From a virus (taxonomy: Duplodnaviria; Caudoviricetes): DNA of 64,000 nt. The position numbers and the translations under genes are program-made. The DNA lies in IMG/VR virus record IMGVR_UViG_2713896764_000001, positions 29,669-93,668 of that record; one strand, written 5' to 3'. Position 1 is the stretch's first letter. Each line of letters begins with the position of its first letter. Positions 9,534 to 47,816 of this stretch are shown here, piece by piece. Below the pieces are notes generated by a model, which saw nothing but the letters and a program-made list of their open reading frames with translations, was not told the origin of the DNA and made no database searches.

Positions 9534-10168
9534 TAGGTAACAGCCTCCGACTCAGCCTCCTCTCGCTCAAGCTCTTCCCGCTCTGACGCAATTTCCTCGG
9601 CAAGTTCTGCTTCCAGCTCATCCAGGTCAACAATGTCTTCGGCATCGCCAGTTTGGGCCTTGCGAAGCTCAAGCACCTGTTCTTGAGTCAGCTCGGCGAA
9701 CATCAGCTCAGGCAATTCGTCGTCGCGAACGTCTCTGTCATCCATGCGAAGTGCCTTGTGGGAAACCTCATAGCACTTGGCTAAGGCAGCCGACGCTCGT
9801 TGCAGTGCCTTAATTGATTCTTCGGCTGAACCTATGCCTCCGTGCGATCTTGCACCTTCGGCAACTTCCTTCATCACAAGCGCGCCAAGGTTGTAAGCCC
9901 ACTTGTCGTATGACTCCTGACGAGAGGCGATCAAGTTTGCCCGTTCCACGGACTTGTCGATCATTTTCTCTTTCACAGCCTCTCTGACAGCATCCGCAGT
10001 GGCAGCGCTACCCTTCTCTACCCCACGAGCCTTAAATCGTCTTGAAAGCGTTTCTGGACGCATCCCCGACTTCTCTGACAGCGCCGCAAGCGTGTATTCG
10101 CCCGAAGCCCACATAACCTCAAGCTCAATCCATTCCGACGGCGTTAAAATCCTTTTCTTCTCCACCAT
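9533..10168 (-). CDS. terS: Terminase small subunit
   Basis: N-terminal HTH, abuts TerL; start taken at MVEKK. Confidence 0.75.
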   Translation of the reverse strand: MVEKKRILTPSEWIELEVMWASGEYTLAALSEKSGMRPETLSRRFKARGVEKGSAATADAVREAVKEKMIDKSVERANLIASRQESYDKWAYNLGALVMKEVAEGARSHGGIGSAEESIKALQRASAALAKCYEVSHKALRMDDRDVRDDELPELMFAELTQEQVLELRKAQTGDAEDIVDLDELEAELAEEIASEREELEREEAESEAVT

Positions 10169-14170: not shown

Positions 14171-15763
14171 TTGAAAACTGTCGCTATCATCCGCAACGCT
14201 GTTACTGCGCAGCTCGTCAATGCTGACCGAGACGCAAAACAGATCGTTCAAAAAGCCCTTAGCTACGTAGTTGAGGGGGCAAAGTATTCCTCTACTGGCT
14301 GGGATGGAACGTCTACGTTCTTTGATTGGGGAACGTGCAAATTCCCTGCTGGCTTCACCAATGCCATCGCAACCCGTCTAAAGAAGAGCGGCTACAAGGT
14401 CATCACCAAGCGCAAAGAAATGGTTAAGCCGCTTGGAAAGCCAAATCCGGTGGTTAACGCATTCCCACCTAACCCGTTCTACGCATATCAAGATCTGACC
14501 GTTGAGCGTTTGGTTGAAATGGGCGGTATGGTGGCTCAAGTGGCAACCGGTGGTGGTAAGTCGGTTATTGCCTGCAAAGCACTGGCGCGTATCAACCGAC
14601 AGACACTCTTCATCACGACTCGCGGTGTGCTGATGCACCAGATGGCCGGCAACTTCGAAAAATCTCTTGAATACCGCAAGTCCATTGGTGAGTTACCTGC
14701 GGGTGCTTTCGTCGGCATCTTGGGTGATGGTGAATTTACCATGTCCAAGTATGTGAACGTGGCTACCGTCCAGACACTAGCCAAGGCACTTGAAGATCCA
14801 AAGGCGGATTGGGATTCGGCGAAGAAGAAAAAGCACCTGGCTAAACGTAAGGTCGTGCTCGATATGCTTGAGCGCACCTCTCTGCTGATCCTCGAAGAAG
14901 CCCATGAATCATCCGGCGGCCAATTCTATGCCATCGCAAATGCCTGTAAGAACGCAGATTACCGGCTTGCCCTGACTGCTACGCCATTCATGAAAGACAG
15001 CGCAGAGGCAAACATGCGCTTAATGGCCGTGTCCGGAAGTATCGGCATCAAGGTAACAGAAGAGTTCCTGATTAATGCCGGTATTCTGGCTCGCCCTTAC
15101 TTCAAATACATTGAATGCACTCATCTACACGACAGAGAGCGCTTTGATGCGAAGCCCGAACTTGCCAAGAAATACCCTAACACCAACTTGTCTTGGGGCG
15201 CTCCATATCAGAGAGCATACACACTTGGCGTTACCTACAACTTCCAGCGCAACCGACTGATCGTAGCGCAAGCCAAAGAGTTCAAGGACTACGGGCTAAG
15301 CACGATGCTGCTGATTAAGCACAAAGACCACGGGCGTATCTTGTCTGAAATGATGAGCGCACTTGGCATCAAGGTTGAGTTCATCTTCGGCGACTCGAAC
15401 CAAAGTAAGCGTGAAGCGGCACTGAAGAAGCTGGCAACTCGCAAAATTGACGTGCTTATCGGCTCGACCATCTTGGACGTAGGCGTTGACGTTCCGGCTG
15501 TAGGCGCAGTTATTCTTGCCGGTTCGGGTAAGGCAGAAGTAGAGCTTCGCCAGCGTATCGGTCGAGGTTTACGCGCCAAGAAAGATGCCGCGAACATCTG
15601 TTTTGTCGTGGACTTCATCGACAAGTGCAACAAGCACCTCTACAAACACTCGGAAGAGCGCCGTGCCATTGTCCACTCCACTAAGGGCTTCGCAGAGGGC
15701 ATTCTTCCGCAAGGGACCAACTTCGACTACAGCCTGCTAAAACAGAGCCATAAGGTTGCGTGA
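14171..15763 (+). CDS. SF2 DEAD/DEAH-like helicase
   Basis: ATGGGKS, EEAH, TATP, GVDVP, QRIGRGLR. Confidence 0.93.
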   Translation: MKTVAIIRNAVTAQLVNADRDAKQIVQKALSYVVEGAKYSSTGWDGTSTFFDWGTCKFPAGFTNAIATRLKKSGYKVITKRKEMVKPLGKPNPVVNAFPPNPFYAYQDLTVERLVEMGGMVAQVATGGGKSVIACKALARINRQTLFITTRGVLMHQMAGNFEKSLEYRKSIGELPAGAFVGILGDGEFTMSKYVNVATVQTLAKALEDPKADWDSAKKKKHLAKRKVVLDMLERTSLLILEEAHESSGGQFYAIANACKNADYRLALTATPFMKDSAEANMRLMAVSGSIGIKVTEEFLINAGILARPYFKYIECTHLHDRERFDAKPELAKKYPNTNLSWGAPYQRAYTLGVTYNFQRNRLIVAQAKEFKDYGLSTMLLIKHKDHGRILSEMMSALGIKVEFIFGDSNQSKREAALKKLATRKIDVLIGSTILDVGVDVPAVGAVILAGSGKAEVELRQRIGRGLRAKKDAANICFVVDFIDKCNKHLYKHSEERRAIVHSTKGFAEGILPQGTNFDYSLLKQSHKVA

Positions 15764-16041
15764 TGAGCGAAAAGAGTTTTGTGAATATCAACGTGAAGGT
15801 AAGCAACCAGGCTGTAGCGAACCTACGAAGCGCCATGAAGCAGTCAAAGACCAAGAATGGTGTGAAGCTGGACAGAGGGGCTGTGGTGTCTGCTGCGCTT
15901 GAGAGTTTTACGCAAGACCAGTGGGAGAAAGTTTTACAGCCATTGGTCGAGCAAGCTCTAAGGTTTCGAGAGCTTGAGAGCCTGATAAAACAAGGCAAGC
16001 ACGTATCACCAGAAGATATTCAGAGCCTTTTCATGGGCTGA
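15760..16041 (+). CDS. Hypothetical protein, possibly ribbon-helix-helix DNA binding
   Basis: Start overlaps helicase stop; VNINVKVS strand followed by helices. Confidence 0.55.
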   Translation: MMSEKSFVNINVKVSNQAVANLRSAMKQSKTKNGVKLDRGAVVSAALESFTQDQWEKVLQPLVEQALRFRELESLIKQGKHVSPEDIQSLFMG

Positions 16042-16044
16042 GAC

Positions 16045-16068
16045 AAGGGGCGGAAGCCCCTTTCTTTT
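16045..16068 (+). terminator. Rho-independent terminator
   Basis: AAGGGGC-GGAA-GCCCCTT followed by T tract. Confidence 0.8.
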
Positions 16069-16631
16069 GCCCGTTTCATGGCTCAGAGCTATAAGGCTGC
16101 CCCACTTTTCAAATCGGTAATATTTTGGTGTCCACTTTTAGGGACGGCGAGCTATAAGGTCAGTGGAATTTCAGGGGGTCGGCTGGTGTCAGTTGGTCAC
16201 TTTGGGTCAATTGGGTCAGGCTGGGTCTATAGGCTAAACAAGATACAGAGGCTCTACTGTCCCTAAATGTTATTGGGTCTATACAAGGGCTATAAGGTTA
16301 GTGGGCAAAAACAGGGATTTCTGCCGAGGCAATGCTTTCCAACCAACTCGTTTTTTTCTAAGACTTCCGTTCTTTCAGTCAAAAATAAATCACGCTCAAA
16401 TCGCACCAGAATCGCAGCCAGAAAGCGACAAAGGATTAAAGCCATGCGCTCGCACCACTAACAAGGAAAAGCGCTGAGAATGGCATACAGAAAGGATTTT
16501 AAAGAGGATGAAAAACGCGTAAAAAAAATCCGCCACTCGGGCGGATCTTGTGTTTTTGAAACTGGCAATTTTTCTTGTTGTGGTAGTGGCGTATTTTCGC
16601 CACCACATTTAATAAGTCACCGGTGACTAAT

Positions 16632-17360
16632 TTACTGAGCGTTAACAAAAACACTTAGTGACTCAAATTTGCTGCTAAGCAGTTGAAGCAATTTTGAATT
16701 TTCAGCCAGTTGCACTGTTCCGCTATCATTTGAAAGTTTCGCCTTGCTAGTCACTTCGAAGGCGCCCAATTTAACAAGCATTGACAGAATCATTTGAGAC
16801 TGGCGATTAGTCTTTTCGCGTTTAGCATTCAATTCCACTTCGCACAATTCCGGATTTGCTTTGCGCCATGCTTCAACCTTAACGTCGCTGTAAAATTCGC
16901 GGAATTGTTTCACTGTAAAGCTATATGTTCCCATTTCTTCAATCAGTTTAAACGGAATGATTACATTAGTTTCAGTTGAGCGCGCTACTGTATATTCGAA
17001 ATTCTTTTGTCCGAAGATAAACGCCAGTTTTTCTAGTGAATACATATCAGCGCAAATATCCGCTAGATTCAGTTGGTTTTCTTTTTGCATTTGATAGTTT
17101 GCGCTTGCTGCTTTCTGATCGTTTTCTACCATTGCAAGGAATTGAGAAACATATCGGGCGCGTTTCTTTTCCGTGCGGATAGTTGCTGTTAGATCTTTTT
17201 CACGCTGTTTGTCGTTTGTTTCCGCTAGTGCTTTTTCCAGCTCTTCAACTTTGCTATCAATGACAGCTTGAATGTTTTTCACGTTTTGGACAGCATCAGC
17301 TTTAGATTTTACGTTTACAGTTTCAGCGTTAGCGATGTAAGATACAGTTGATTTAGCCAT
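16632..17360 (-). CDS. Hypothetical protein, probably strongly expressed early gene
   Basis: 242 aa, RBS TAAGGA, consensus-like promoter upstream. Confidence 0.8.
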   Translation of the reverse strand: MAKSTVSYIANAETVNVKSKADAVQNVKNIQAVIDSKVEELEKALAETNDKQREKDLTATIRTEKKRARYVSQFLAMVENDQKAASANYQMQKENQLNLADICADMYSLEKLAFIFGQKNFEYTVARSTETNVIIPFKLIEEMGTYSFTVKQFREFYSDVKVEAWRKANPELCEVELNAKREKTNRQSQMILSMLVKLGAFEVTSKAKLSNDSGTVQLAENSKLLQLLSSKFESLSVFVNAQ

Positions 17361-17445
17361 GATAGTTATTCCTTAATTACTGGTTACCTGATACTTGGTT
17401 AACTCATCGAAACTTTGGATTGGTGTCTCTCGTTTCGATGTGGCA

Positions 17446-17474
17446 ATTATGGAACTTTCGAGCAAAACCAGCAA
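17446..17474 (-). promoter_or_regulatory. Sigma70 promoter TTGCTG-N17-CATAAT with A-tract UP element
   Basis: Read directly on the minus strand. Confidence 0.65.
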
Positions 17475-17796
17475 GTGTTTTTTTCGGAATTTTTCGGCTT
17501 TAATGCTTTTTGTGACCTACTGCGTAATTTATTAATTAAGTAGGCTTGATTGGCTAAATCATATTCAAACCTGCAATTCTGGTTATTGATTTTTCTTTAT
17601 TTCTTGGTTATTCGCGTCACGCGATCTATATACCAGCGGAAAAAGTCGGCTTTATTGCTCAAGCCTGCCGGACGGTGTCAACCTTCCCTGAAATAAAACC
17701 TTCTGAAAACTCCGGTAAGCCTTCCCTTATATTTTTTTACCCCCTAATTTGTCTGCGAATACAAATTTCCCTAACTCTGCACTATTCGCCCTGCCC

Positions 17797-17842
17797 CCTT
17801 TCCCTAATTTTTGCGGCTGGACACCGGAAATTGAAATACCTG
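17797..17842 (+). repeat. 46-bp dispersed direct repeat, copy 1 (others at 20923-20968 and 21055-21100)
   Basis: 39/46 identity to copy 2 by manual alignment. Confidence 0.8.
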
Positions 17843-18002
17843 AGTTTACGTCCCGCGAGGTGTTTGGAGCCGGAGTTGCTGTTTTGAGGCTGGAAGTGCC
17901 GCGAGGTGGTCTGATTGGTTATTTAGACGAGAGTTAGCCAGGTTAAATGTGTTGCCCTTGGAATATGGCCTTGCGGTATGTTGCGGGCAAAAGAAAGGGA
18001 GC

Positions 18003-18407
18003 TTACTGCTCCCCGAATACTTCTCTTAGGATTTTGGCAACGGTTCTCTTGGTGCCTTTGATGTTCACGACATATGGCTTCCCGTCCTTCATGGACGCCT
18101 TCTTTGGTCGGATGGTGACGCAGTCGCCTTTATTGCTTAGGAAATATTTGCCGTTGAACTCCGGAACCTCTTTCCAGACAACTTTGCCATCGGCTTGCTC
18201 TTGAGTCGTAAACAACTCATCGACAAAGGTATTGGACTGTCGCTTCCACTTGCTGCCGTCTTCTCTGATAAGCGTGAAGTGGTAGTAATCACCGTTGCTG
18301 GCTCTGGTCTTCTTTAGCGACCGCAGCTCCCTGATTTCTCCGTCCTCGTTAATCTGATATCCCTCGAACTCCGGAATATCACGCCATTCTTGATAATCGC
18401 CTTTCAT
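18003..18407 (-). CDS. Tandem NUMOD4-like domain protein without HNH
   Basis: EWRDIPEFEGYQINEDGEIR and VWKEVPEFNGKYFLSNKGD; promoter TTGCTT-N17-TACAAT at 18444-18472. Confidence 0.75.
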   Translation of the reverse strand: MKGDYQEWRDIPEFEGYQINEDGEIRELRSLKKTRASNGDYYHFTLIREDGSKWKRQSNTFVDELFTTQEQADGKVVWKEVPEFNGKYFLSNKGDCVTIRPKKASMKDGKPYVVNIKGTKRTVAKILREVFGEQ

Positions 18408-18551
18408 ACGTCAGTATCTTTATTTTTTGGTTAGCGTGGCGGAATTGTATGTCTGAGAGCTTATCGAAGCAATGCCAGCACCTTCGCCTAATTTGTCTGT
18501 TGCCTGAAGGAAAAGGCAGAAAAGACAGTGCTAAATCAGTCAGGTCAAATA

Positions 18552-18796
18552 GACAAAAGGATCGGCGAAGAAGTTTTATCTCCTTGCCGATCCCCTGTCA
18601 TGGCAGTGGCAGCATTACAATAGAGAAACGGGTGGCTTCCCTTTCGGTAAGAGAAGCAATGAAAAAGTGCTTACCTTGCACTCCACCGAGGAAGGAACTT
18701 AGCGAAGCTAACCGGAGAAACGCAACATCAAGCAAGGTAAGCAAAATGGGCGGCAGTCCGGCTCGGTGAGAGGACAAGTAACACCACCGAACTGCC
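18552..18796. ncRNA. Candidate structured RNA or ssDNA element
   Basis: Helices 18559-68/18584-93, 18668-79/18732-43 (12 bp perfect), 18752-68/18785-96. Confidence 0.4.
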
Positions 18797-18842
18797 TAAT
18801 TCTATATATGGGAATAATTCCCGTAGTCCTCTTTACTGGCTG

Positions 18843-19193
18843 TCAGCCTTCAACGGTTTCCATTTCATCTAGCGCCGCAGTAAGCGTCGTAGGTGTCATG
18901 GAAAAGGTCGCTTTATCCATCCAGTAGTAACGGCCATCAGAGCCGCGCATAAGCTGTTTGTGCTGGAAGAACTGTAGCGGGTGAGCTGAGTAAGTCACCG
19001 CATCAGCTTTCTCCGTCGCTTTGCGCTTGCGTCGCAGTTGCTTACTGCGCTGCTTACGTTCACGCTCTAATGTCTTCGCCAGCAGCTTGTCAATGCGCTG
19101 CTCAGTGCGGATCTGTTCACGATCCGAATCAGTCATGTAAGCTAACTTATACTCAGAACGCTTACGTGCCTGTTCTTGTGTATATGCAAACAT
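18843..19193 (-). CDS. Basic hypothetical protein
   Basis: RBS GAGGA; operator-like site at 19245-19262 upstream. Confidence 0.7.
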   Translation of the reverse strand: MFAYTQEQARKRSEYKLAYMTDSDREQIRTEQRIDKLLAKTLERERKQRSKQLRRKRKATEKADAVTYSAHPLQFFQHKQLMRGSDGRYYWMDKATFSMTPTTLTAALDEMETVEG

Positions 19194-19315
19194 ATTTTTG
19201 TCCTCTCGCTTGCTGGATAAGGGGCAATGACCAAATCCCCCTGATAAGCCAGCGCTTACTATTCTGCATACTGAAAAAGTAAATGCAACACCAAAATTAA
19301 CTAAGCGCTTACCTA

Positions 19316-19558
19316 TTAAGCGGCATTTAAAAATTGGGATAGTTTCTCAGGTTGAATCCCCAAGGTGCGAACACAGGCTCTTTCGATAGCCGCAAGACTC
19401 GCTGTAGACAGATAAGCACCGCTCTTTGCCTTTTTGGACATAACTACCAGGTCAAAACGCTGAATGCCGTTTTCTGTGTTGTAGGTGGTCAGGCGTGCTT
19501 CAACGTTTCCGTCTTTGCAGAGCCCGATAACTTGAATTGTGTCTTTTGCGATTTGCAT
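19316..19558 (-). CDS. Hypothetical protein
   Basis: RBS GGAG and own promoter-like motif. Confidence 0.65.
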   Translation of the reverse strand: MQIAKDTIQVIGLCKDGNVEARLTTYNTENGIQRFDLVVMSKKAKSGAYLSTASLAAIERACVRTLGIQPEKLSQFLNAA

Positions 19559-19913
19559 TGTGTTCGCTCCGTGGTTCCGTTGATGTGCTCATTTTCGCGG
19601 ACTTGGAGAGGCAAGGAAGTGGATTGCTGAGGGCTGTCTGATTTCGCTCGGCTGAGCTTTTCTTCTGTCTGTTTTGAGAGGTTTTGCTTTTGCCTTGGCT
19701 GTTTCTCTTTACTTGTTCTTCTGTTTGCTCTGTTTTGGCTTTTTTCAGGTAAAAGTGGTCTTTTGAGCGATATGTGATACCAGCAAGAAATCACAAAATC
19801 TACCCAAGACCAAAGCCAACCCTGAATTAGAGGTTTCTGGAGAAAAATTGCGAGCGAGCGCTTAATTTTTAACCAACACTCTTTCCGGTTATCCGGCACA
19901 CAAGTTTTTGTCT

Positions 19914-20297
19914 TCTTGAAAAGCTGACTTATCGCGGCATCGTTCTGCGCAGTGCCCTGTCCTATTCAAACAGGAAGCCGAACCAAGTGGCTGCGGCTTA
20001 CTTATTAGGCGCACATTGCATGGTGTGTCAAACCCCGTGACTAAGCGGATACCAACCCGCGCTTTATGGTCGATTTCTACAGTTTCTTTTGGCTACTTAG
20101 TGCCTATAGTGGCATCACATTAACCCGCGTTTCACTGGCAGTGGTCGTTCTTCGCCAGAACCCCGCTCGAAGGGCTTCGCTTTTCAAGAGTAGTGCAATT
20201 AGGTTTCTGACTGGTTGTGTTATCGGGGAGCCGTCACTAAGCTCAACGCCCAAAGGAACAAAGACTAGCTGCGGCACGTTCCAATGAGTTGCACTAC
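19914..20297 (-). ncRNA. Candidate large structured ncRNA (~385 nt)
   Basis: Abutting long-range helices 19914-24/20179-89 (11 bp) and 20190-98/20289-97 (9 bp); many internal hairpins; promoter-like sequence and operator upstream. Confidence 0.55.
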
Positions 20298-21162
20298 ATC
20301 ACTAACCGCTTACTTATTTTACATCCACCATATAGAACAAAACAATCATTTAGCAGCCAATACCTAAGCAACTGCTTATTTTTTATCTAGTGAAGTAAAA
20401 CGCTGTAGAACGCGCTCAGAGACGATTTAAGAAAAAGTGGAGCCACCGTATTCCCCACACTCAAAAACACGCAGGGAAGCGATTCTAGAAAGTTTCTCGG
20501 GAGTTTCTTGCGGAAGTTTTTAAACACCCCGCCAATTTACCCATTCAGTCATTTCCCGAAAGGTAAATTAGCAGTTCATTCCCTACTAACAGGCCAAGCA
20601 CCCTGCGGGAAGCTCAGCCCCTTGCGAGAGCATCTATTTCACCGGAGCAGATGTGGGAAAATAACGTATCCAGAACAGACTACGGGAGGAAATTTATCGC
20701 CTATCGAAAGTTGGCTTTTGCCTAACGAAATTCATTGATTGCCGTGAAAGCTGCATGAGACGATCTGTATGTGCTCGGGAACGGACACTTGCGGGAACCA
20801 CATTGCGCCATAGAAATCCGCGGCCATTCACAACCCCTAATACCAGTTCGGGGAACTGTCCCTAATCGTAGTTCCCTCATCAATGAGGGCAGCAAGCCGT
20901 AACCGGCCATATACGACCTCAGCCTTTCCCTAATTTTTCCGGCTGGAAACCCCGATTCGAAATACCTGGCTAATATCCGCAAACCAACGGCAATTCTCCC
21001 TGACAAAAACTCACCTAATGAGAGCTTCCCTTTCGGTCCATATCCGGAACGTCACCTTTCTCAAAATTTTCAGGCCAGACTTCCCGACTCCAAACGCCTG
21101 ACGGCGGAGAACTTGATTAAGTCATTGAAAGGGAATTTGTGCGGCGCGCCTTCCGAAACCCA

Positions 21163-21400
21163 CTCTCCCTCTCCCCCTTACACCAGCTTCTCCCTATATC
21201 GCTTCCTCTCTCTTCTCCCTGTCTCTTAATAGTTGCTCCTCTCTAATGGAATGACAGCTTTCTTCACTCCTTATCATGGAAGGTGAATATCTCTTCTCTA
21301 CTGGTCTTTCATCACTCCTGCTTATCTACGGACTATTGCTCTCTAATGGGATTTGGTATCCGCGATTCTCTTCTCTACTGCTTTCCCTTTATAGAGCGTT
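21163..21400. repeat. Pyrimidine-rich tract with short direct repeats
   Basis: CTCTCTAATGG at 21239 and 21339; TCTCTTCTCTACTG at 21290 and 21367. Confidence 0.65.
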
Positions 21401-22089
21401 GAGAGTGATGTTCTATGGCTGAGTCCTTGTGTTTACTGGCGGGAGAAGTGATTAGAGCTTTCTTATTGAAGGTGTATAGCGTGTTGGGCTTATGTGGTTT
21501 GTTTAGTTTATTGGGCTTGGTGATGTTGTTTAATGGGTGGGTATTTGGGGATGGCTTCCCGCTGGTAGGATCTTGCGGTTTTACGAATCGTTTAATGGAT
21601 TACGTGTTTAGGGGTTGAGTTGTTTTTTTGTTTTATTCGGTTCTGTTTGGGTGGTTTTGGGCGATATAAGAATTGGGGTCAGGGGTTAATCAAAAAGTAA
21701 GTATTTTTTCTTATTTTTTATTGATAACTCTTTGAGTGGGTTTGATTCTGACTCTCTTTGGTAAAAACAAAGATAAGAAATTGATATTAAAGGCTTTTTG
21801 TGTTTATGAGATAGTTTTGCTACATACTTATATCTTTGACTGGTGTGGGTATAGGTTTTTGACCGTAAATTGCAAACATTTGACCGGTTTTAATTACCTT
21901 CCACTTGGCTCACTCCAAAAGGCTTGGCATTTGGTGCTGAACGATAGTTATTTGATTGGCTGTCCGGTAAGTAAAGCAAAGCCTCGCTGTGTGCGAGGCT
22001 AAAATGTTTATGTTGCTCGCTCTGCAACAAGACTTCGGGGCTGCTCTACACCGGTCCCGAAGCCTCCACCTGGCTATACTCCGCAACCT

Positions 22090-22326
22090 TTACTGAGCGT
22101 CACGATTGGCAATTCGCTGGTATAGCTCTTTGTTCTGGCTGCGCAGTCGGAACACCTCGTTAATCAGGTGGCCGATGCACTCACTTGTCATCTGCTCACT
22201 CTTGATGCCCTTCTGGATCATCCAGTTGTAGAAGTTGTATGCCCCGTCTCTAGTTTCTAAGTTCGAGTCGATCCGGCTCAAAAAGTCAGTATCAATCAGG
22301 GCAATTACGTTGGTAGGTTTTGCCAT
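22090..22326 (-). CDS. Hypothetical protein
   Basis: RBS AAGGA, promoter-like motif. Confidence 0.7.
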   Translation of the reverse strand: MAKPTNVIALIDTDFLSRIDSNLETRDGAYNFYNWMIQKGIKSEQMTSECIGHLINEVFRLRSQNKELYQRIANRDAQ

Positions 22327-22456
22327 TGCTCGTTTCCTTTGCAGTTGCTCGTTTCAATACGCAGATATTAAATAAACGCCATAGGCACGCCAGATAGGAA
22401 AAAGGGCTACCAAATGGCAGCCCAATTCCGTTTCAGAGTAAGACCATCGAACGCAA

Positions 22457-22774
22457 TTATTCGGTTACTTCTTCAATCTCAACAGCTTGCTCGGATTCAG
22501 TTTCAGCAGGAGTTTCCGGCTGCTCCTGAACCAGCACGCCAAGGTCATGAAGCAGGCCAAGATCAACTTGGTTCTCAACGCCATTCGAGCTACGAACCAA
22601 GAACTTGTCTGCGCCTTTTTGGCCGGCAACATTGGCTGCAATCAAAGCCGCCTGAACAGGGTTCTCAGCCTGAACAGGGTTCTCAGCCTGAACTCGAATA
22701 GGTGACAACTGCACCTCAAAAACAGGCAGTGTTTTATCAGTCATTACAGGGCTATCCATGTCGTTTGCTCTCAT
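22457..22774 (-). CDS. Acidic hypothetical protein with an 18-bp tandem duplication
   Basis: QAENPV twice; DNA repeat at 22651-22693. Confidence 0.6.
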   Translation of the reverse strand: MRANDMDSPVMTDKTLPVFEVQLSPIRVQAENPVQAENPVQAALIAANVAGQKGADKFLVRSSNGVENQVDLGLLHDLGVLVQEQPETPAETESEQAVEIEEVTE

Positions 22775-22857
22775 ACCGTTCGGGAAGATAGCGGCTTTTT
22801 AAAAAGTAAGTCAACACTTATTTTAAGTAAGCAATGACTTACCTTTTGAATGCAAAA

Positions 22858-23583
22858 CTACTTGGAGTTGTCTTCAGCCAACTCCTTAGCAATCCGCAGG
22901 TAGCCAAGTGTATCCGCGCAGGTTGGCTCGCTCACTTCGTGATAACGGAAGCAGTGTAATGTCGCGTAGGCATTCTTCCATAAGGCTTGGAACTTAACTT
23001 CATCCCCTGCTTTGGTCTTCCAGCCATTGCGTTTCCAGTTAGGCACCCAATGTCTAAAACCATTTTGCATGGCCGTTGATGAGGTGAAGATCATCGCCTG
23101 CTCCAGCTCACACTCGTTGAAAATCTTCATCGCGGCAATAATCGCGTATAGACCAGCCTGAATCTCGCCAGAAAAGGTGCCAGGCATTTTGAACTTGTAG
23201 TAAAGCTCTGCGCCGTTGTAGATGCAAAATGCCGTTGTCGTATTACCAACTGACGGCGTTACCACTTCCAAGGCTGCACAGACTGTCGATTTGTCGAACT
23301 CCGCAAGTCCTTTCACATGCTCAATCATCTTGTTCATGTCTGTGAACAGAGGGTGCTCGCTGTATCCGCTTCTGAGCGCTTTTGGTGGTAACTTGGTGCT
23401 GTGGTGGCTCTCTATGGCTTTAATCACTTCTAAATCGCGCAGGGAAGCGAATTTCGCCACGTCCGATATTAACTTTCCCCAATCCTCGCTGACTGGGTGG
23501 GTGGACGGAAAGGATTTCCGGATCAGATCGTCAATTCGCTTTACATAATCAGGCATTCCGGACTTATTCATCATAACCCTCAC
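22858..23583 (-). CDS. RNase HI-like protein, apparently catalytically degenerate
   Basis: WVPNWKRNGWKTKAGDEVKFQALWK is the RNase HI signature; acidic active-site residues appear replaced. Confidence 0.75.
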   Translation of the reverse strand: MRVMMNKSGMPDYVKRIDDLIRKSFPSTHPVSEDWGKLISDVAKFASLRDLEVIKAIESHHSTKLPPKALRSGYSEHPLFTDMNKMIEHVKGLAEFDKSTVCAALEVVTPSVGNTTTAFCIYNGAELYYKFKMPGTFSGEIQAGLYAIIAAMKIFNECELEQAMIFTSSTAMQNGFRHWVPNWKRNGWKTKAGDEVKFQALWKNAYATLHCFRYHEVSEPTCADTLGYLRIAKELAEDNSK

Positions 23584-23647
23584 TTGTTGCTAGTGCTTAG
23601 TTAGATTTTGACTCCGCAGACAAGGCATCCAAGCAAATTGTCGATCA

Positions 23648-23863
23648 CCCCTTTTATATAAATTAAAAGGAATAAATATATTATTTATGGAAACGCGGTT
23701 TTTATTCAGTGTTAGGTAGTTCCGGATATTGAAATCTATCTCAGGAAACTAGGCTCTTGCAGAGCCTAGTTTCCTGAGATAACTCCGTAACTCCTTCACG
23801 ATTACCTTCGGACAAAAAACCTAGCTTCCAATATATAAATATTCTTTTAATTATTTATATAGG
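23648..23863. repeat. Palindromic array B: long imperfect terminal inverted repeats and a central palindrome with 21-bp arms
   Basis: TATCTCAGGAAACTAGGCTCT-TGC-AGAGCCTAGTTTCCTGAGATA at 23737-23781; motif copies at 23688-23703 and 23815-23830. Confidence 0.8.
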
Positions 23864-24104
23864 GAAGAACCTTGCGGATTACCCTGCCGCTCCCTCCAAA
23901 TAGTAACCTAGCGCTTACTTAATTCAATAGGAAATCGTTCCGGACTTGCCTCTTCTCCAAAACGCTCTCAGACGATTCGGGACACTGTAGCTGTGGGTTG
24001 GCTTGGGTAAATACGAAAAAAGCGCCCCTGAGTGATTCTGGGCGCTTTTCTGGGGGGGTGTAGTCTGTTTTTGTGCTCTTACGCTGCTTGCTTGAGAACG
24101 TCGT

Positions 24105-24500
24105 TTACAGAGGCCACGAGTAACTTGAACCCTTCGCGGTTATGGGCGAATTTTGCAATCTCACGGCGATGAGAGGTGTGTCCTTTTCGCCGTAGAACGG
24201 AAGGCCGTTTTCAAGCTCATAGGCAAAGAGCTTTCTCAAATACCCAAGCACACTGTAGGTAATGTGGCCTCGGTTCTTGGCACTTGTGCCGTTAAACACA
24301 AAGTTGATTGATTCGCCATCTTCCCAATGAACCTCTACGTCATGCTTGTCGTAGCCTACTTTCGACAAGGTTGGTGCTTGTCGCAGCATCCAGTTCGTCG
24401 AATCGAGAATGGCGGATGGCTTGTCAAAAATTTCAGGCTTGTTGCACAATTTGAACTCGCCCTCCAAGCGAGTAATTATGATTTTGGTTACAGCAATCAC
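24105..24500 (-). CDS. Hypothetical protein, possibly LPD25-like
   Basis: GYDKHDVEVHWEDG resembles the LPD25 motif as recalled; not verified. Confidence 0.5.
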   Translation of the reverse strand: MIAVTKIIITRLEGEFKLCNKPEIFDKPSAILDSTNWMLRQAPTLSKVGYDKHDVEVHWEDGESINFVFNGTSAKNRGHITYSVLGYLRKLFAYELENGLPFYGEKDTPLIAVRLQNSPITAKGSSYSWPL

Positions 24501-24512
24501 TTAAGTCACCGA

Positions 24513-24890
24513 TTACTTATACACACAGAAAAAAATATATTCGCTATGCCCCTTGGTATCAGCCACCGCTTTTACACCCAAAGGTAATTCCCACTCATAC
24601 CGAAAGCCGCGTATGTCCTCTTCTCGACGTTCATTGAGAACTCGGTTGATCGTGCTGATCGCCAACGAAAGATCCTGTCCCCAAATAAGGCGCTGAATCA
24701 ACTTGCCCTCTTCCGATTCCGTATTGCCATACAGTCCGGCGCGATGCTGGGAAAACTCAACATTATATTTGCCATCGGTAAAAACGATATTCATGCGAGC
24801 GCCAAACCACGCTTTGCTTCTTTCCGGCGCAACTATTCCCCATTGAATACAACTCATACCACGAACTTCCTTAATATTAAGCACAAGCAA
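24513..24890 (-). CDS. Hypothetical protein
   Basis: ORF within a co-oriented operon. Confidence 0.6.
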   Translation of the reverse strand: MLVLNIKEVRGMSCIQWGIVAPERSKAWFGARMNIVFTDGKYNVEFSQHRAGLYGNTESEEGKLIQRLIWGQDLSLAISTINRVLNERREEDIRGFRYEWELPLGVKAVADTKGHSEYIFFCVYK

Positions 24891-25584
24891 ATGATGGCAT
24901 TTCTACAAAGGCATTCAATTCCTCTGTAGTAGACCGAATCGGCACTGCAGTAATGTGATACAAAAGCTCATGTTCGACTGTCAGCGCATTCCCGCAGTAG
25001 ACGATGATCTCGCGTAATGATTTGGTCGGAGACAACACTTCAACGGTTTTCAATCGCTGGATGGTTGCACAGTAAACCGCGCATCTGTCGATATCGTTAA
25101 TAGTGAGTCGCAGTTTATCCAGCCCAGCCTGTCCATATTTCTCAAATAGCGTTTCCACGACAGCAAGTGCCATAGAACCAGCCCCTACGCACGGCTCAAG
25201 AACAGAGAATCCGTCCGGATAGTTGTCCAATTTGAGATCATGAAACTGCATTTGCGCTATTGCCTTGCTGACAGAGTAAGGCGTGTAGAACGCACCAAGG
25301 TTTTTGCTATGGCCTGCCAAGTTCAGCTCACACATAACCCGCCCCAGCAAATCAATACCTGGATAACTTTCAACGAACCCGAAAAACAGCTTTTCTGCCT
25401 CAACTGCCTTTGTCACTTCGTGATCTCCCCAACTCAAGTGGTCACGGCAATTGTCACCCCCGATGAAACCGTTGAGCATGGCCTTTACCCAATCCTCAAA
25501 AGCATTGGACTGTGACAGCCGGATATCAAACATCAAACGTGAAATCTTTTCCGCTACTGACTGAGCCTGAATAACCGAATACAT
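24877..25584 (-). CDS. N6 DNA methyltransferase-like protein (SAM-binding half)
   Basis: GAFYTP, EPCVGAGSM, NDID, GNAL; no NPPY/F motif. Confidence 0.7.
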   Translation of the reverse strand: MYSVIQAQSVAEKISRLMFDIRLSQSNAFEDWVKAMLNGFIGGDNCRDHLSWGDHEVTKAVEAEKLFFGFVESYPGIDLLGRVMCELNLAGHSKNLGAFYTPYSVSKAIAQMQFHDLKLDNYPDGFSVLEPCVGAGSMALAVVETLFEKYGQAGLDKLRLTINDIDRCAVYCATIQRLKTVEVLSPTKSLREIIVYCGNALTVEHELLYHITAVPIRSTTEELNAFVEMPSFACA

Positions 25585-46428: not shown

Positions 46429-47481
46429 CCGTTCTCCTTTCGGCGGCTATGAGTCAGAATGATTCTTTCGAAACTAAAGTAATGAGTTAATAAATAAGAC
46501 GTATGATTTGATAATAGTAAAAATTAGCATAGGTTCTTATTGTATATAGTGAGAGGTATCTATTTATTGTTTTTGTAGTCAAATTGACTTTCTTGATTTT
46601 TCCCCTCGTAGTTTTTTTATTCAACAGATTTTAAATGGAAGATATTTCTTGCTTGATTCAATGATTTATGTTATCCAATTTTAATGAGTGATATGCCAAT
46701 TAATTGCTTGGTCTTATACCTTTACTTTATGACATTTTGATGACAAATAATATTCGCATAAAGATGCGGAACGAAACCCATGCACGCCCCATACGAATAC
46801 CTGTTCATTTTAACGATTCCTACTAATTATTGGGGATGCGGTCTGGAGCATTATCTAGTATTGCAAAGAAACCATATCCATTCAGCAGCAGCTACAGTTA
46901 CTGATCACGTGTCGTAAATAATGCGACTAGTTCGCGGTAATCTCGTGACCTACGCTGATTCTGGTCTTTCAGCTAATCTAACTCGTAGGTTCCCTTTCGA
47001 TTTGGCTTCAAGTGTTTTCATCTTGATATTATTTGATTATGATCATAAAACAATGATTTTAAAGGGTTTTACTGCCTCATTCTTTTTGCAAATGGCCAAC
47101 AATACGCTAAGTTCAATAGTCACACTGACTCGTTTAAACTAATGCCGCCATTTTGACACTGTGTTAGAGGCACATGTCTGATCAAGTCGTTTCAACTAGA
47201 GAAATGAGTGCTGTATGAACTCTCGCCATTTAGCATATCTGACATCTGATTTTTTATACCGGATGAAATTTATCTTTACTTTACTAAGTAATGAGGTATG
47301 ATTTTGGCTGCTCTGATGTTCAGACTTATTAATGAAACACCAAGTCAAAGTAAACCCTAAGAATTTCTTCGTTAATGTTGTTATCCTCTGTGTTTCCCTT
47401 AGCTTCATCGTCACATTCAATAATTCAATCTTCAGAGAATCGAAGTAACATTATTAATTTTTAATATATAAGGGACACTAC

Positions 47482-47691
47482 ATGTCTAAAGCAACTGGTA
47501 TCGTAAAGTGGTTTAACGAAGAGAAAGGTTTTGGTTTCATTACTCAAGACAATGGCGGTGCTGACGTATTCGTTCATTTCCGCGCAATTGCTTCAGAAGG
47601 TTTCAAAACTCTTTCTGAAGGCCAAAAAGTATCTTTCGATGTAGAGCAAGGTCAAAAAGGCCCTCAAGCAGCTAATGTTGTAGCTCTATAA
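47482..47691 (+). CDS. cspA: Cold-shock protein
   Basis: [18 protein letters not shown]. Confidence 0.96.
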
Positions 47692-47699
47692 TTGAAATT

Positions 47700-47730
47700 T
47701 TGGCGTAAGTGGATAACCCACTTACGCCAA
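47700..47730. terminator. 13-bp stem-loop after the cold-shock gene
   Basis: TTGGCGTAAGTGG-ATAAC-CCACTTACGCCAA. Confidence 0.65.
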
Positions 47731-47816
47731 CTAAGAATCAGCAACGCTGCACTGAGAAAGTCAAAACGTAATACCTTACTCCAAGACTACACTCTTCAAA
47801 AATTTGTTCTCCACGC

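Follow-up and report, generated by a model that had tools for sequence, protein, structure and literature searches.

GOLLD and ROOL, two families in Rfam, are large, non-coding, phage-associated RNAs with several hairpins enclosed by long-range helices, and they often lie near tRNA genes. The leader-derived immunity RNAs of P4 (CI RNA), P1/P7 (c4) and N15 (CA RNA) are much shorter, at ~70-90 nucleotides (nt); they are processed from a leader and pair with repeated target sequences. We analyzed a minus-strand stretch, positions 20297-19914, of a 64,000-nt window that comprises bases 29669-93668 of a 93.7-kb provirus record in IMG/VR. A first-pass annotation had read this stretch as a ~385-nt, two-domain structured RNA under operator control, conceptually like GOLLD or ROOL. 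We tentatively favor another reading, to which we give somewhat less than an even chance: the stretch may be the promoter-proximal segment of an untranslated leader of ~750 nt in the early/regulatory region of a divergent SSU5-like prophage, and not a dedicated, globally structured RNA machine.

The likeness to GOLLD and ROOL is one of plan, since the stretch is also large for an RNA, non-coding, phage-associated and able to place several hairpins within long-range helices. It differs in lacking a match to any Rfam model (gathering threshold and E≤10), an excess of folding energy and a homologue family, and the window has no tRNA genes. The likeness to the immunity RNAs lies in a repressor-controlled promoter of a plasmid prophage that would read into an untranslated leader ahead of small early genes, with short sequence words recurring in that leader. 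The repeated word here, however, is a half-palindrome of a DNA regulon and not one partner of an antisense/target pair, and the Rfam scans of the stretch, with a library that presumably includes the C4 family, gave no match.

A closer comparison is an RNA that we found in classical SSU5-like phage-plasmids, members of the same phage family. Like the stretch, this SSU5-family RNA is free of open reading frames (ORFs) and ~400 nt long, lies on the strand of a 78-amino-acid (aa) gene (window 22090-22326; SSU5_089) and downstream of that gene, comes behind a palindrome of the phage itself and a -10 element, and has smaller 5' helices ahead of a large multi-hairpin domain that a long-range helix closes. 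The two differ in position: the SSU5-family RNA begins immediately behind the 78-aa gene and stops short of rnhA, while the stretch is 1.75 kb farther along. In the classical SSU5-like elements rnhA, annotated as RNase HI, follows the structured RNA directly, whereas the present genome has no homologue of that RNA. The SSU5-family RNA is also far more stable than shuffled sequence (z -3.37 and -2.67) and covaries strongly.

Sequence reading and repeat scans placed two perfect inverted repeats exactly where the first-pass annotation had drawn two long-range helices. The 11-bp repeat pairs TCTTGAAAAGC (19914-19924) with GCTTTTCAAGA (20179-20189), the 9-bp repeat pairs GTAGTGCAA (20190-20198) with TTGCACTAC (20289-20297), and the two helices meet exactly between 20189 and 20190. 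The features of the stretch and its surroundings are as follows.

20340-20345, minus strand: -35-like TTGTTT, 3/6 to TTGACA.
20316-20321, minus strand: -10-like TAAAAT, whose last T is the first base of the palindrome.
20299-20316, no strand assigned: palindrome site O1, minus-strand sequence TAAGTAAGCGGTTAGTGA, 12/14 to the regulon consensus, with the promoter-distal half degenerate.
20190-20297, minus strand: small domain, 108 nt, closed by the 9-bp repeat (20289-20297 / 20190-20198).
19914-20189, minus strand: large domain, 276 nt, closed by the 11-bp repeat (20179-20189 / 19914-19924).
19996-20031, minus strand: internal promoter-like unit, with a consensus -35 TTGACA (20031-20026), N16 and CCTAAT (20009-20004).
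19925-19931, minus strand: third half-palindrome, TAAGTCA, in the same orientation and directly 5' of the 3' arm of the 11-bp repeat.
19559-19913, minus strand: A-rich, ORF-free tail between the repeats and the 80-aa gene; plus-strand AT skew -0.43 at 19500-19799.
19316-19558, minus strand: 80-aa gene, the first credible gene downstream, with GGAG 8 nt before the ATG and a positive coding score.

The window as a whole is rich in perfect inverted repeats: 85 of at least 9 bp within 320 nt, versus 64±7 in simulated sequence, and 13 of at least 11 bp, versus 3.7±1.8. There is exactly one abutting pair of repeats in the window, while the simulated mean was 0.03 and any such pair occurred in 1 of 60 simulations. 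The abutting geometry is thus unusual, at a post hoc p of ~0.02-0.03. The four minus-strand hairpins listed in the first-pass annotation (AAGCCG..CGGCTT, CCTGT(TT)..(GG)ACAGG, GCGGG..TCCGC and GTTCT..AGAAC) are all found in the sequence as well.

We compared fold energies with those of dinucleotide shuffles, a comparison that is suggestive only, as some real RNAs fail it. The flagged stretch folds no better than shuffled sequence. For positions 19900-20310 the minus strand gave -118.9 kcal/mol (z +0.71) and the plus strand -118.2 kcal/mol (z +0.22), and the z scores of 150-nt windows between 19850 and 20350 ran from -1.0 to +1.0 on both strands. In predicted minus-strand RNAs starting at 20309, the pair probability was 0.97-0.99 for the 11-bp helix and 0.44-0.96 for the 9-bp helix, the latter against 0.06-0.21 on the plus strand. 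When the start was moved to 20400, the values fell to 0.001 (11-bp) and 0.004 (9-bp). This pairing prediction fits the strand and start that the first-pass annotation had chosen, and is not independent evidence for them because perfect complements of 9-11 bp are bound to be predicted.

The operator that had been claimed at 20299-20316 proved to be a genuine member of a palindrome regulon. An 18-bp palindrome with the consensus TAAGT(C/A)A-N4-T(G/T)ACTTA occurs at ~24 sites in the window at a match of at least 12/14, and at ten of these the match is 14/14. The sites lie mostly just upstream of minus-strand genes (examples are those at 1851, 4881, 6766, 8265, 10168, 14104, 22824, 24502, 31306 and 35684). 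Seven of them (6766, 8265, 22824, 23904, 31306, 35684 and 52988) have a common layout, in which a good sigma-70 promoter on the minus strand has its spacer filled by the palindrome, its -35 resembles TTGAAA and its -10 begins with the palindrome's last TA. At site 20299 the best promoter-like combination is TTGTTT-18-TAAAAT (20345-20316), present as the first-pass annotation had reported and facing the stretch, and transcription from it would start near 20309. Between 19316 and 20298 there is no palindrome site of at least 12/14 and only one 11/14 word, at 19812. Elsewhere in the window, at 16590-16630, a 13/14 palindrome site comes right after the stop of a 242-aa minus-strand gene (16632-17360). 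On the plus strand this site borders on TTTAAT, which would direct a transcript antisense to that gene.

Parts of the palindrome recur inside the large domain. The internal promoter-like unit overlaps a left half-palindrome, TAAGTAAGC (20004-19996), and AATAAGTAAGC within that unit is an exact 11-nt copy of the O1 word (19996-20006 = 20308-20318, 100%). The word ATAAGT(A/C)AGC has three minus-strand copies in one orientation, at O1 (20317), 20005 and 19932, and 18000-20400 has 4-5 times the window's mean density of TAAGC/GCTTA words. With its half-palindromes and TTGACA unit, the large domain therefore contains promoter-/operator-like DNA. A terminator scan of the minus strand from 20300 to 19300 found no terminator-like site, and therefore a discrete ~385-nt product is not indicated.

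The statement that the stretch holds no credible ORF stands. In a 3-periodic Markov coding score trained on long genes, every ORF in 19559-22089 was negative, while the small flanking genes (18003-18407, 18843-19193, 19316-19558, 22090-22326 and 22457-22774) were positive. None of the ORFs inside the flagged stretch occurs as a called protein in a 15-billion-protein collection. From the whole of 19559-22089 only one does, a spurious ORF at 21415-21618 with five cluster members at 93-97% identity. The ORFs of 19559-22089 had no match in PHROGs even at E≤1, and a six-frame tblastn search of 19559-22090 for a gene relic gave no match among 94 loci, nearly all SSU5-like. A hidden gene or pseudogene was rejected on these coding scores, the exact protein look-up, PHROGs and the six-frame search.

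The first-pass annotation did not recognize the stretch as a tRNA, transfer-messenger RNA (tmRNA) or intron, and the Rfam scans and ARAGORN bear this out. Within 17300-24200, Rfam at E≤10 returned sub-threshold chance matches only, none of them inside the flagged area, so that the stretch is without a match to any Rfam 15 family; ARAGORN found 0 tRNA or tmRNA genes in the 64 kb. At the gathering threshold, the only Rfam 15 match in the whole window was a cspA thermoregulator at 47307-47732, a full-length plus-strand match (94.3 bits, E 1e-22) that is followed by a cold-shock-domain ORF. There is no paralogue of the stretch in the 93.7-kb genome, where the palindrome word (20298-20320) alone has a 23-nt match, 91% identical, at 10013-10035 of the full record (E 0.016). 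Neither megablast nor blastn matched the region to anything in the phage and plasmid collections, no exact 20-mers of the region were found in IMG/VR, and no homologue of the stretch was present among the 94 loci. A retron, an insertion sequence-derived guide RNA and a miniature inverted-repeat transposable element (MITE) were also considered and rejected: ~35 ORFs compared with PHROGs or Pfam gave no reverse-transcriptase or transposase match, and sequence reading showed no target-site duplication flanking the repeats.

The SSU5-family RNA served as a positive control. Homologues of the 78-aa gene are found in SSU5 (SSU5_089) and in 689 PLSDB plasmids. In SSU5, PhiR41_1 and ST13-OXA48phi12.3 an annotation-free gap of 440-585 nt extends from the 78-aa gene to rnhA, on the same strand as the 78-aa gene, and the gap DNA is present at 93-99% identity in 688 PLSDB plasmids. 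Most of these come from Klebsiella, Escherichia, Enterobacter and Salmonella, and in number and hosts they are essentially the plasmids that carry the gene. The positions of the element, by locus, are given below.

L009:7285-7735, SSU5: SSU5-family RNA.
L016:3790-4260, Cronobacter sp. JZ38 plasmid: SSU5-family RNA.
L009:7232-7760 (SSU5), L010:3232-3815, L011:3244-3807 and L012:399-986: ORF-free element from the 78-aa gene to rnhA.
L016:3735-4432, Cronobacter sp. JZ38 plasmid: the same ORF-free element.

The gap opens with the phage's own palindrome, GGTAAGTACTTACC in SSU5, which is followed by an extended -10 in which TA..AT is kept and the inner bases vary. RNAalifold on seven near-identical sequences predicted 150 pairs, 13 of them with compensatory changes, and in the copy on the Cronobacter sp. 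JZ38 plasmid, which is ~68% identical, the helices are kept through many double changes. In the 240-nt domain B, 96.9% of cells pair, and 15 of 75 pairs have changed on both sides, versus 3.0±1.5 in shuffles; 0 of 500 shuffles reached 15, and slid controls gave 0-5. The two fold z scores cited above are those of the SSU5 (-3.37) and Cronobacter (-2.67) copies. There is a strong case that this ~440-nt element is a structured RNA, and it is a candidate new large RNA family: it has no match in Rfam 15, and we found nothing in the literature on structured RNAs of SSU5 or pHCM2.

The flagged stretch is not a member of this family. Searches of the whole 93.7-kb genome with nhmmer profiles of the SSU5-family RNA gave a best E of 2.4, in a coding region, and a motif search of 18000-23000 for its core blocks (ACAACCTCTCAC, TTCTGGGGT and AGAGGTTG) found nothing beyond chance. 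Covariance model R1, built on domain B (75 pairs), scored 294 and 196 bits on members, while cmsearch of 15000-25000 with filters off gave at best 10.5 bits, on a generic hairpin at 23738-23782. Five other IMG/VR records of divergent SSU5-like elements, including a complete genome of 99.9 kb, likewise lack the SSU5-family RNA, so that its absence here is no exception. This phage family thus does possess a large RNA behind a palindrome, one that passes the very tests that the flagged stretch fails.

In the reading that we favor as the most economical, a weak sigma-70-type promoter, TTGTTT-N18-TAAAAT, would overlap one site of the palindrome regulon, and minus-strand transcription from ~20309 would run through 20297-19914. 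Transcription would then read through the A-rich tail as far as the 80-aa gene (19558) and on into those that follow it. The two perfect repeats would pair in the transcript to give a two-lobed leader, whose first 400 nt, including both repeats, would be moderately folded and whose last 350 nt would be A-rich and open. This would be ordinary leader structure amid crowded regulatory DNA, with two further half-palindromes and the internal TTGACA-N16-CCTAAT, and any regulatory role of such a leader would be equally conjectural. A fold energy equal to that of shuffles is as expected of an ordinary leader. Also in favor of this reading are the place of site 20299 in the ~24-site regulon, the minus-strand orientation of every real flanking gene, the position of ten strong sites ahead of gene starts, and the lack, between site 20299 and the 80-aa gene, of any coding-like ORF, terminator-like site or further palindrome site of at least 12/14. 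The predicted pairing of both helices in minus-strand RNAs from 20309 and the high density of TAAGC/GCTTA words point the same way.

Several observations weigh against this reading. Site 20299 departs from the layout of the seven strong promoters: its hexamers in the canonical places would be ATGTAA / GATGTA, and the only alternative that fits there is the combination proposed by the first-pass annotation, with a -35 of just 3/6. Because of this poor -35 and the departure from the strong-promoter layout, the predicted promoter may be dead. At ten strong sites the next start codon is ~12-100 nt downstream, while from site 20299 the next gene with a coding signal starts at 19558, ~750 nt away, so that the leader would be far longer than those at the other palindrome sites. 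Chance would rarely bring two perfect repeats into exact abutment, and an ordinary leader leaves this unexplained. A transcript from the internal TTGACA unit, finally, could not form the 11-bp helix.

The first-pass proposal of a large non-coding RNA under operator control stood in part: the stretch is non-coding, it lies behind a regulon palindrome, and a promoter-like site faces it. The structured RNA itself found no support in the fold z scores, and the likeness to a dedicated GOLLD/ROOL-type RNA was not supported by the comparison with shuffles, from which the SSU5-family control separated clearly. We consider it improbable that the stretch encodes a stand-alone ~385-nt structured RNA, with two coaxially stacked domains under control of the palindrome, acting as a scaffold, decoy or ribozyme. 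The exact abutment of the 11-bp and 9-bp helices speaks for such an RNA, as do the high predicted probability of both helices only on the minus strand and only from the predicted start, the absence of ORFs next to a regulon palindrome, and the classical SSU5-like phage-plasmids, whose palindrome-preceded ~440-nt structured RNA shows that the concept exists in the family. Set against these are the fold scores near zero, overall and locally, the lack of an Rfam match even at E≤10, and the lack of a terminator-like site after the stretch. The promoter-like unit and half-palindromes within the large domain also count against it, as does the position of site 20299 off the strong-promoter layout, and neither a homologue in the rest of the genome, the phage and plasmid collections or the 94 loci nor any hit of the SSU5-family profile and covariance model in the stretch was found. 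It is decidedly improbable that a lineage-specific ~385-nt RNA has replaced the SSU5-family RNA without homology, with its helices coaxially stacked in a two-domain scaffold that would be made only from ~20309.

Somewhat unlikely, though next in probability to the leader reading, is the explanation that the stretch is worn-down or DNA-level regulatory sequence that gives no functional RNA. It would hold one decayed copy of a regulon promoter/operator and what is left of two others, and its inverted repeats would be due to chance, or be relics or signals of protein or DNA structure. The degenerate half of site 20299 and its place off the canonical promoter layout agree with this, as do the two further sites that retain the left half only, the fold energy like that of shuffled sequence, and the whole 19559-22089 block (2.5 kb), which is ORF-free with odd strand-composition switches. 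However, former genes have left no trace there, either in tblastn against the 94 loci or in PHROGs, the block has been kept in near-identical relatives (the five members of ORF 21415-21618), abutting repeats are unlikely by chance, and compact phage genomes rarely retain 2.5 kb of junk. We regard as very unlikely a replication region, in which the 2.5-kb block would serve as an origin and the transcript of the stretch as a primer or control RNA, on the model of ColE1 RNA II. The abrupt GC- and AT-skew switches near 21000-21900, the short repeated words in the block, a 46-bp repeat at 20923 and 17797, and the position of the structured RNA immediately before rnhA in SSU5 relatives would suit an origin. 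This reading is weak because the block has no DnaA box and no iterons, and no 10-mer present three times, and because GATC is depleted (2 sites versus ~7.8 expected); moreover, no replication initiator gene was identified nearby, and the flagged stretch is at the far edge of the skewed tracts. On its plus strand, the 19559-22089 block is C/T-rich at ~21000-21450 and then G/T-rich at ~21450-21900, and TCTCTTCTCTACTG and CTCTCTAATGG are repeated in it.

Phage-family matches in the window include a portal, a large terminase, paired ParB-like genes, an ABC ATPase, nucleotide-metabolism genes, SbcCD and a large DNA polymerase. The helicase (14171-15763) shares 58-59% identity with that of SSU5 and with those of phage-plasmids from Klebsiella and E. 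coli, and the source is therefore a divergent SSU5-like element. No closer relative was found in phage, plasmid, IMG/VR, genome and metagenome collections. A helicase-alignment search of IMG/VR returned 80 loci, every one 54-59% identical, and blastn and nhmmer of 18408-22090 against these loci gave no match. With the helicase and a 136-aa ORF as queries, viral, genome and metagenome collections yielded no close relative, and tblastn of the ORFs of 15700-24600 against the helicase-adjacent regions of SSU5 and ST13-OXA48phi12.3 gave no match. The known relatives are represented by proteins 93-99% identical, on contigs of up to 2.03 Mb, so close that covariation among them would carry little information.

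The real genes that flank the stretch are all on the minus strand. Upstream, an RNase H-like gene (22858-23583) precedes the 78-aa gene, which is phrog_5343; a terminator-like hairpin at 22000-21980 follows the latter, and then 1.6 kb of ORF-free DNA extends up to site 20299. Downstream, the product of the 80-aa gene has six near-identical cluster members, and neither it nor the 116-aa gene product gave a functional lead in PHROGs, Pfam or the ESM Atlas.

The fold scan also picked out other segments of the neighborhood. Just upstream of the promoter-like site, 20450-20650 on the minus strand reached z -2.6 to -3.0 (-53.5 kcal/mol for a 150-nt window), and 19750-19899 and the terminator-like hairpin after the 78-aa gene stood out as well. 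A 435-nt ORF-free block at 18408-18842, between the 116-aa gene and an HNH/NUMOD4 endonuclease gene, contains a number of long perfect hairpins and matches nothing in Rfam; its z scores were -3.16 and -3.29 on the two strands, and local windows across 18450-18900 went down to -4.5. As a structured element, this block is a better candidate than the flagged stretch.

If the leader reading is true, the stretch would be an ordinary though unusually long untranslated leader that needs no special attention. The context worth keeping is the ~24-site palindrome regulon and the 2.5-kb gene-free block of this divergent SSU5-like prophage. It is the SSU5-family RNA, rather than the flagged stretch, that is the candidate large phage-plasmid RNA deserving follow-up.

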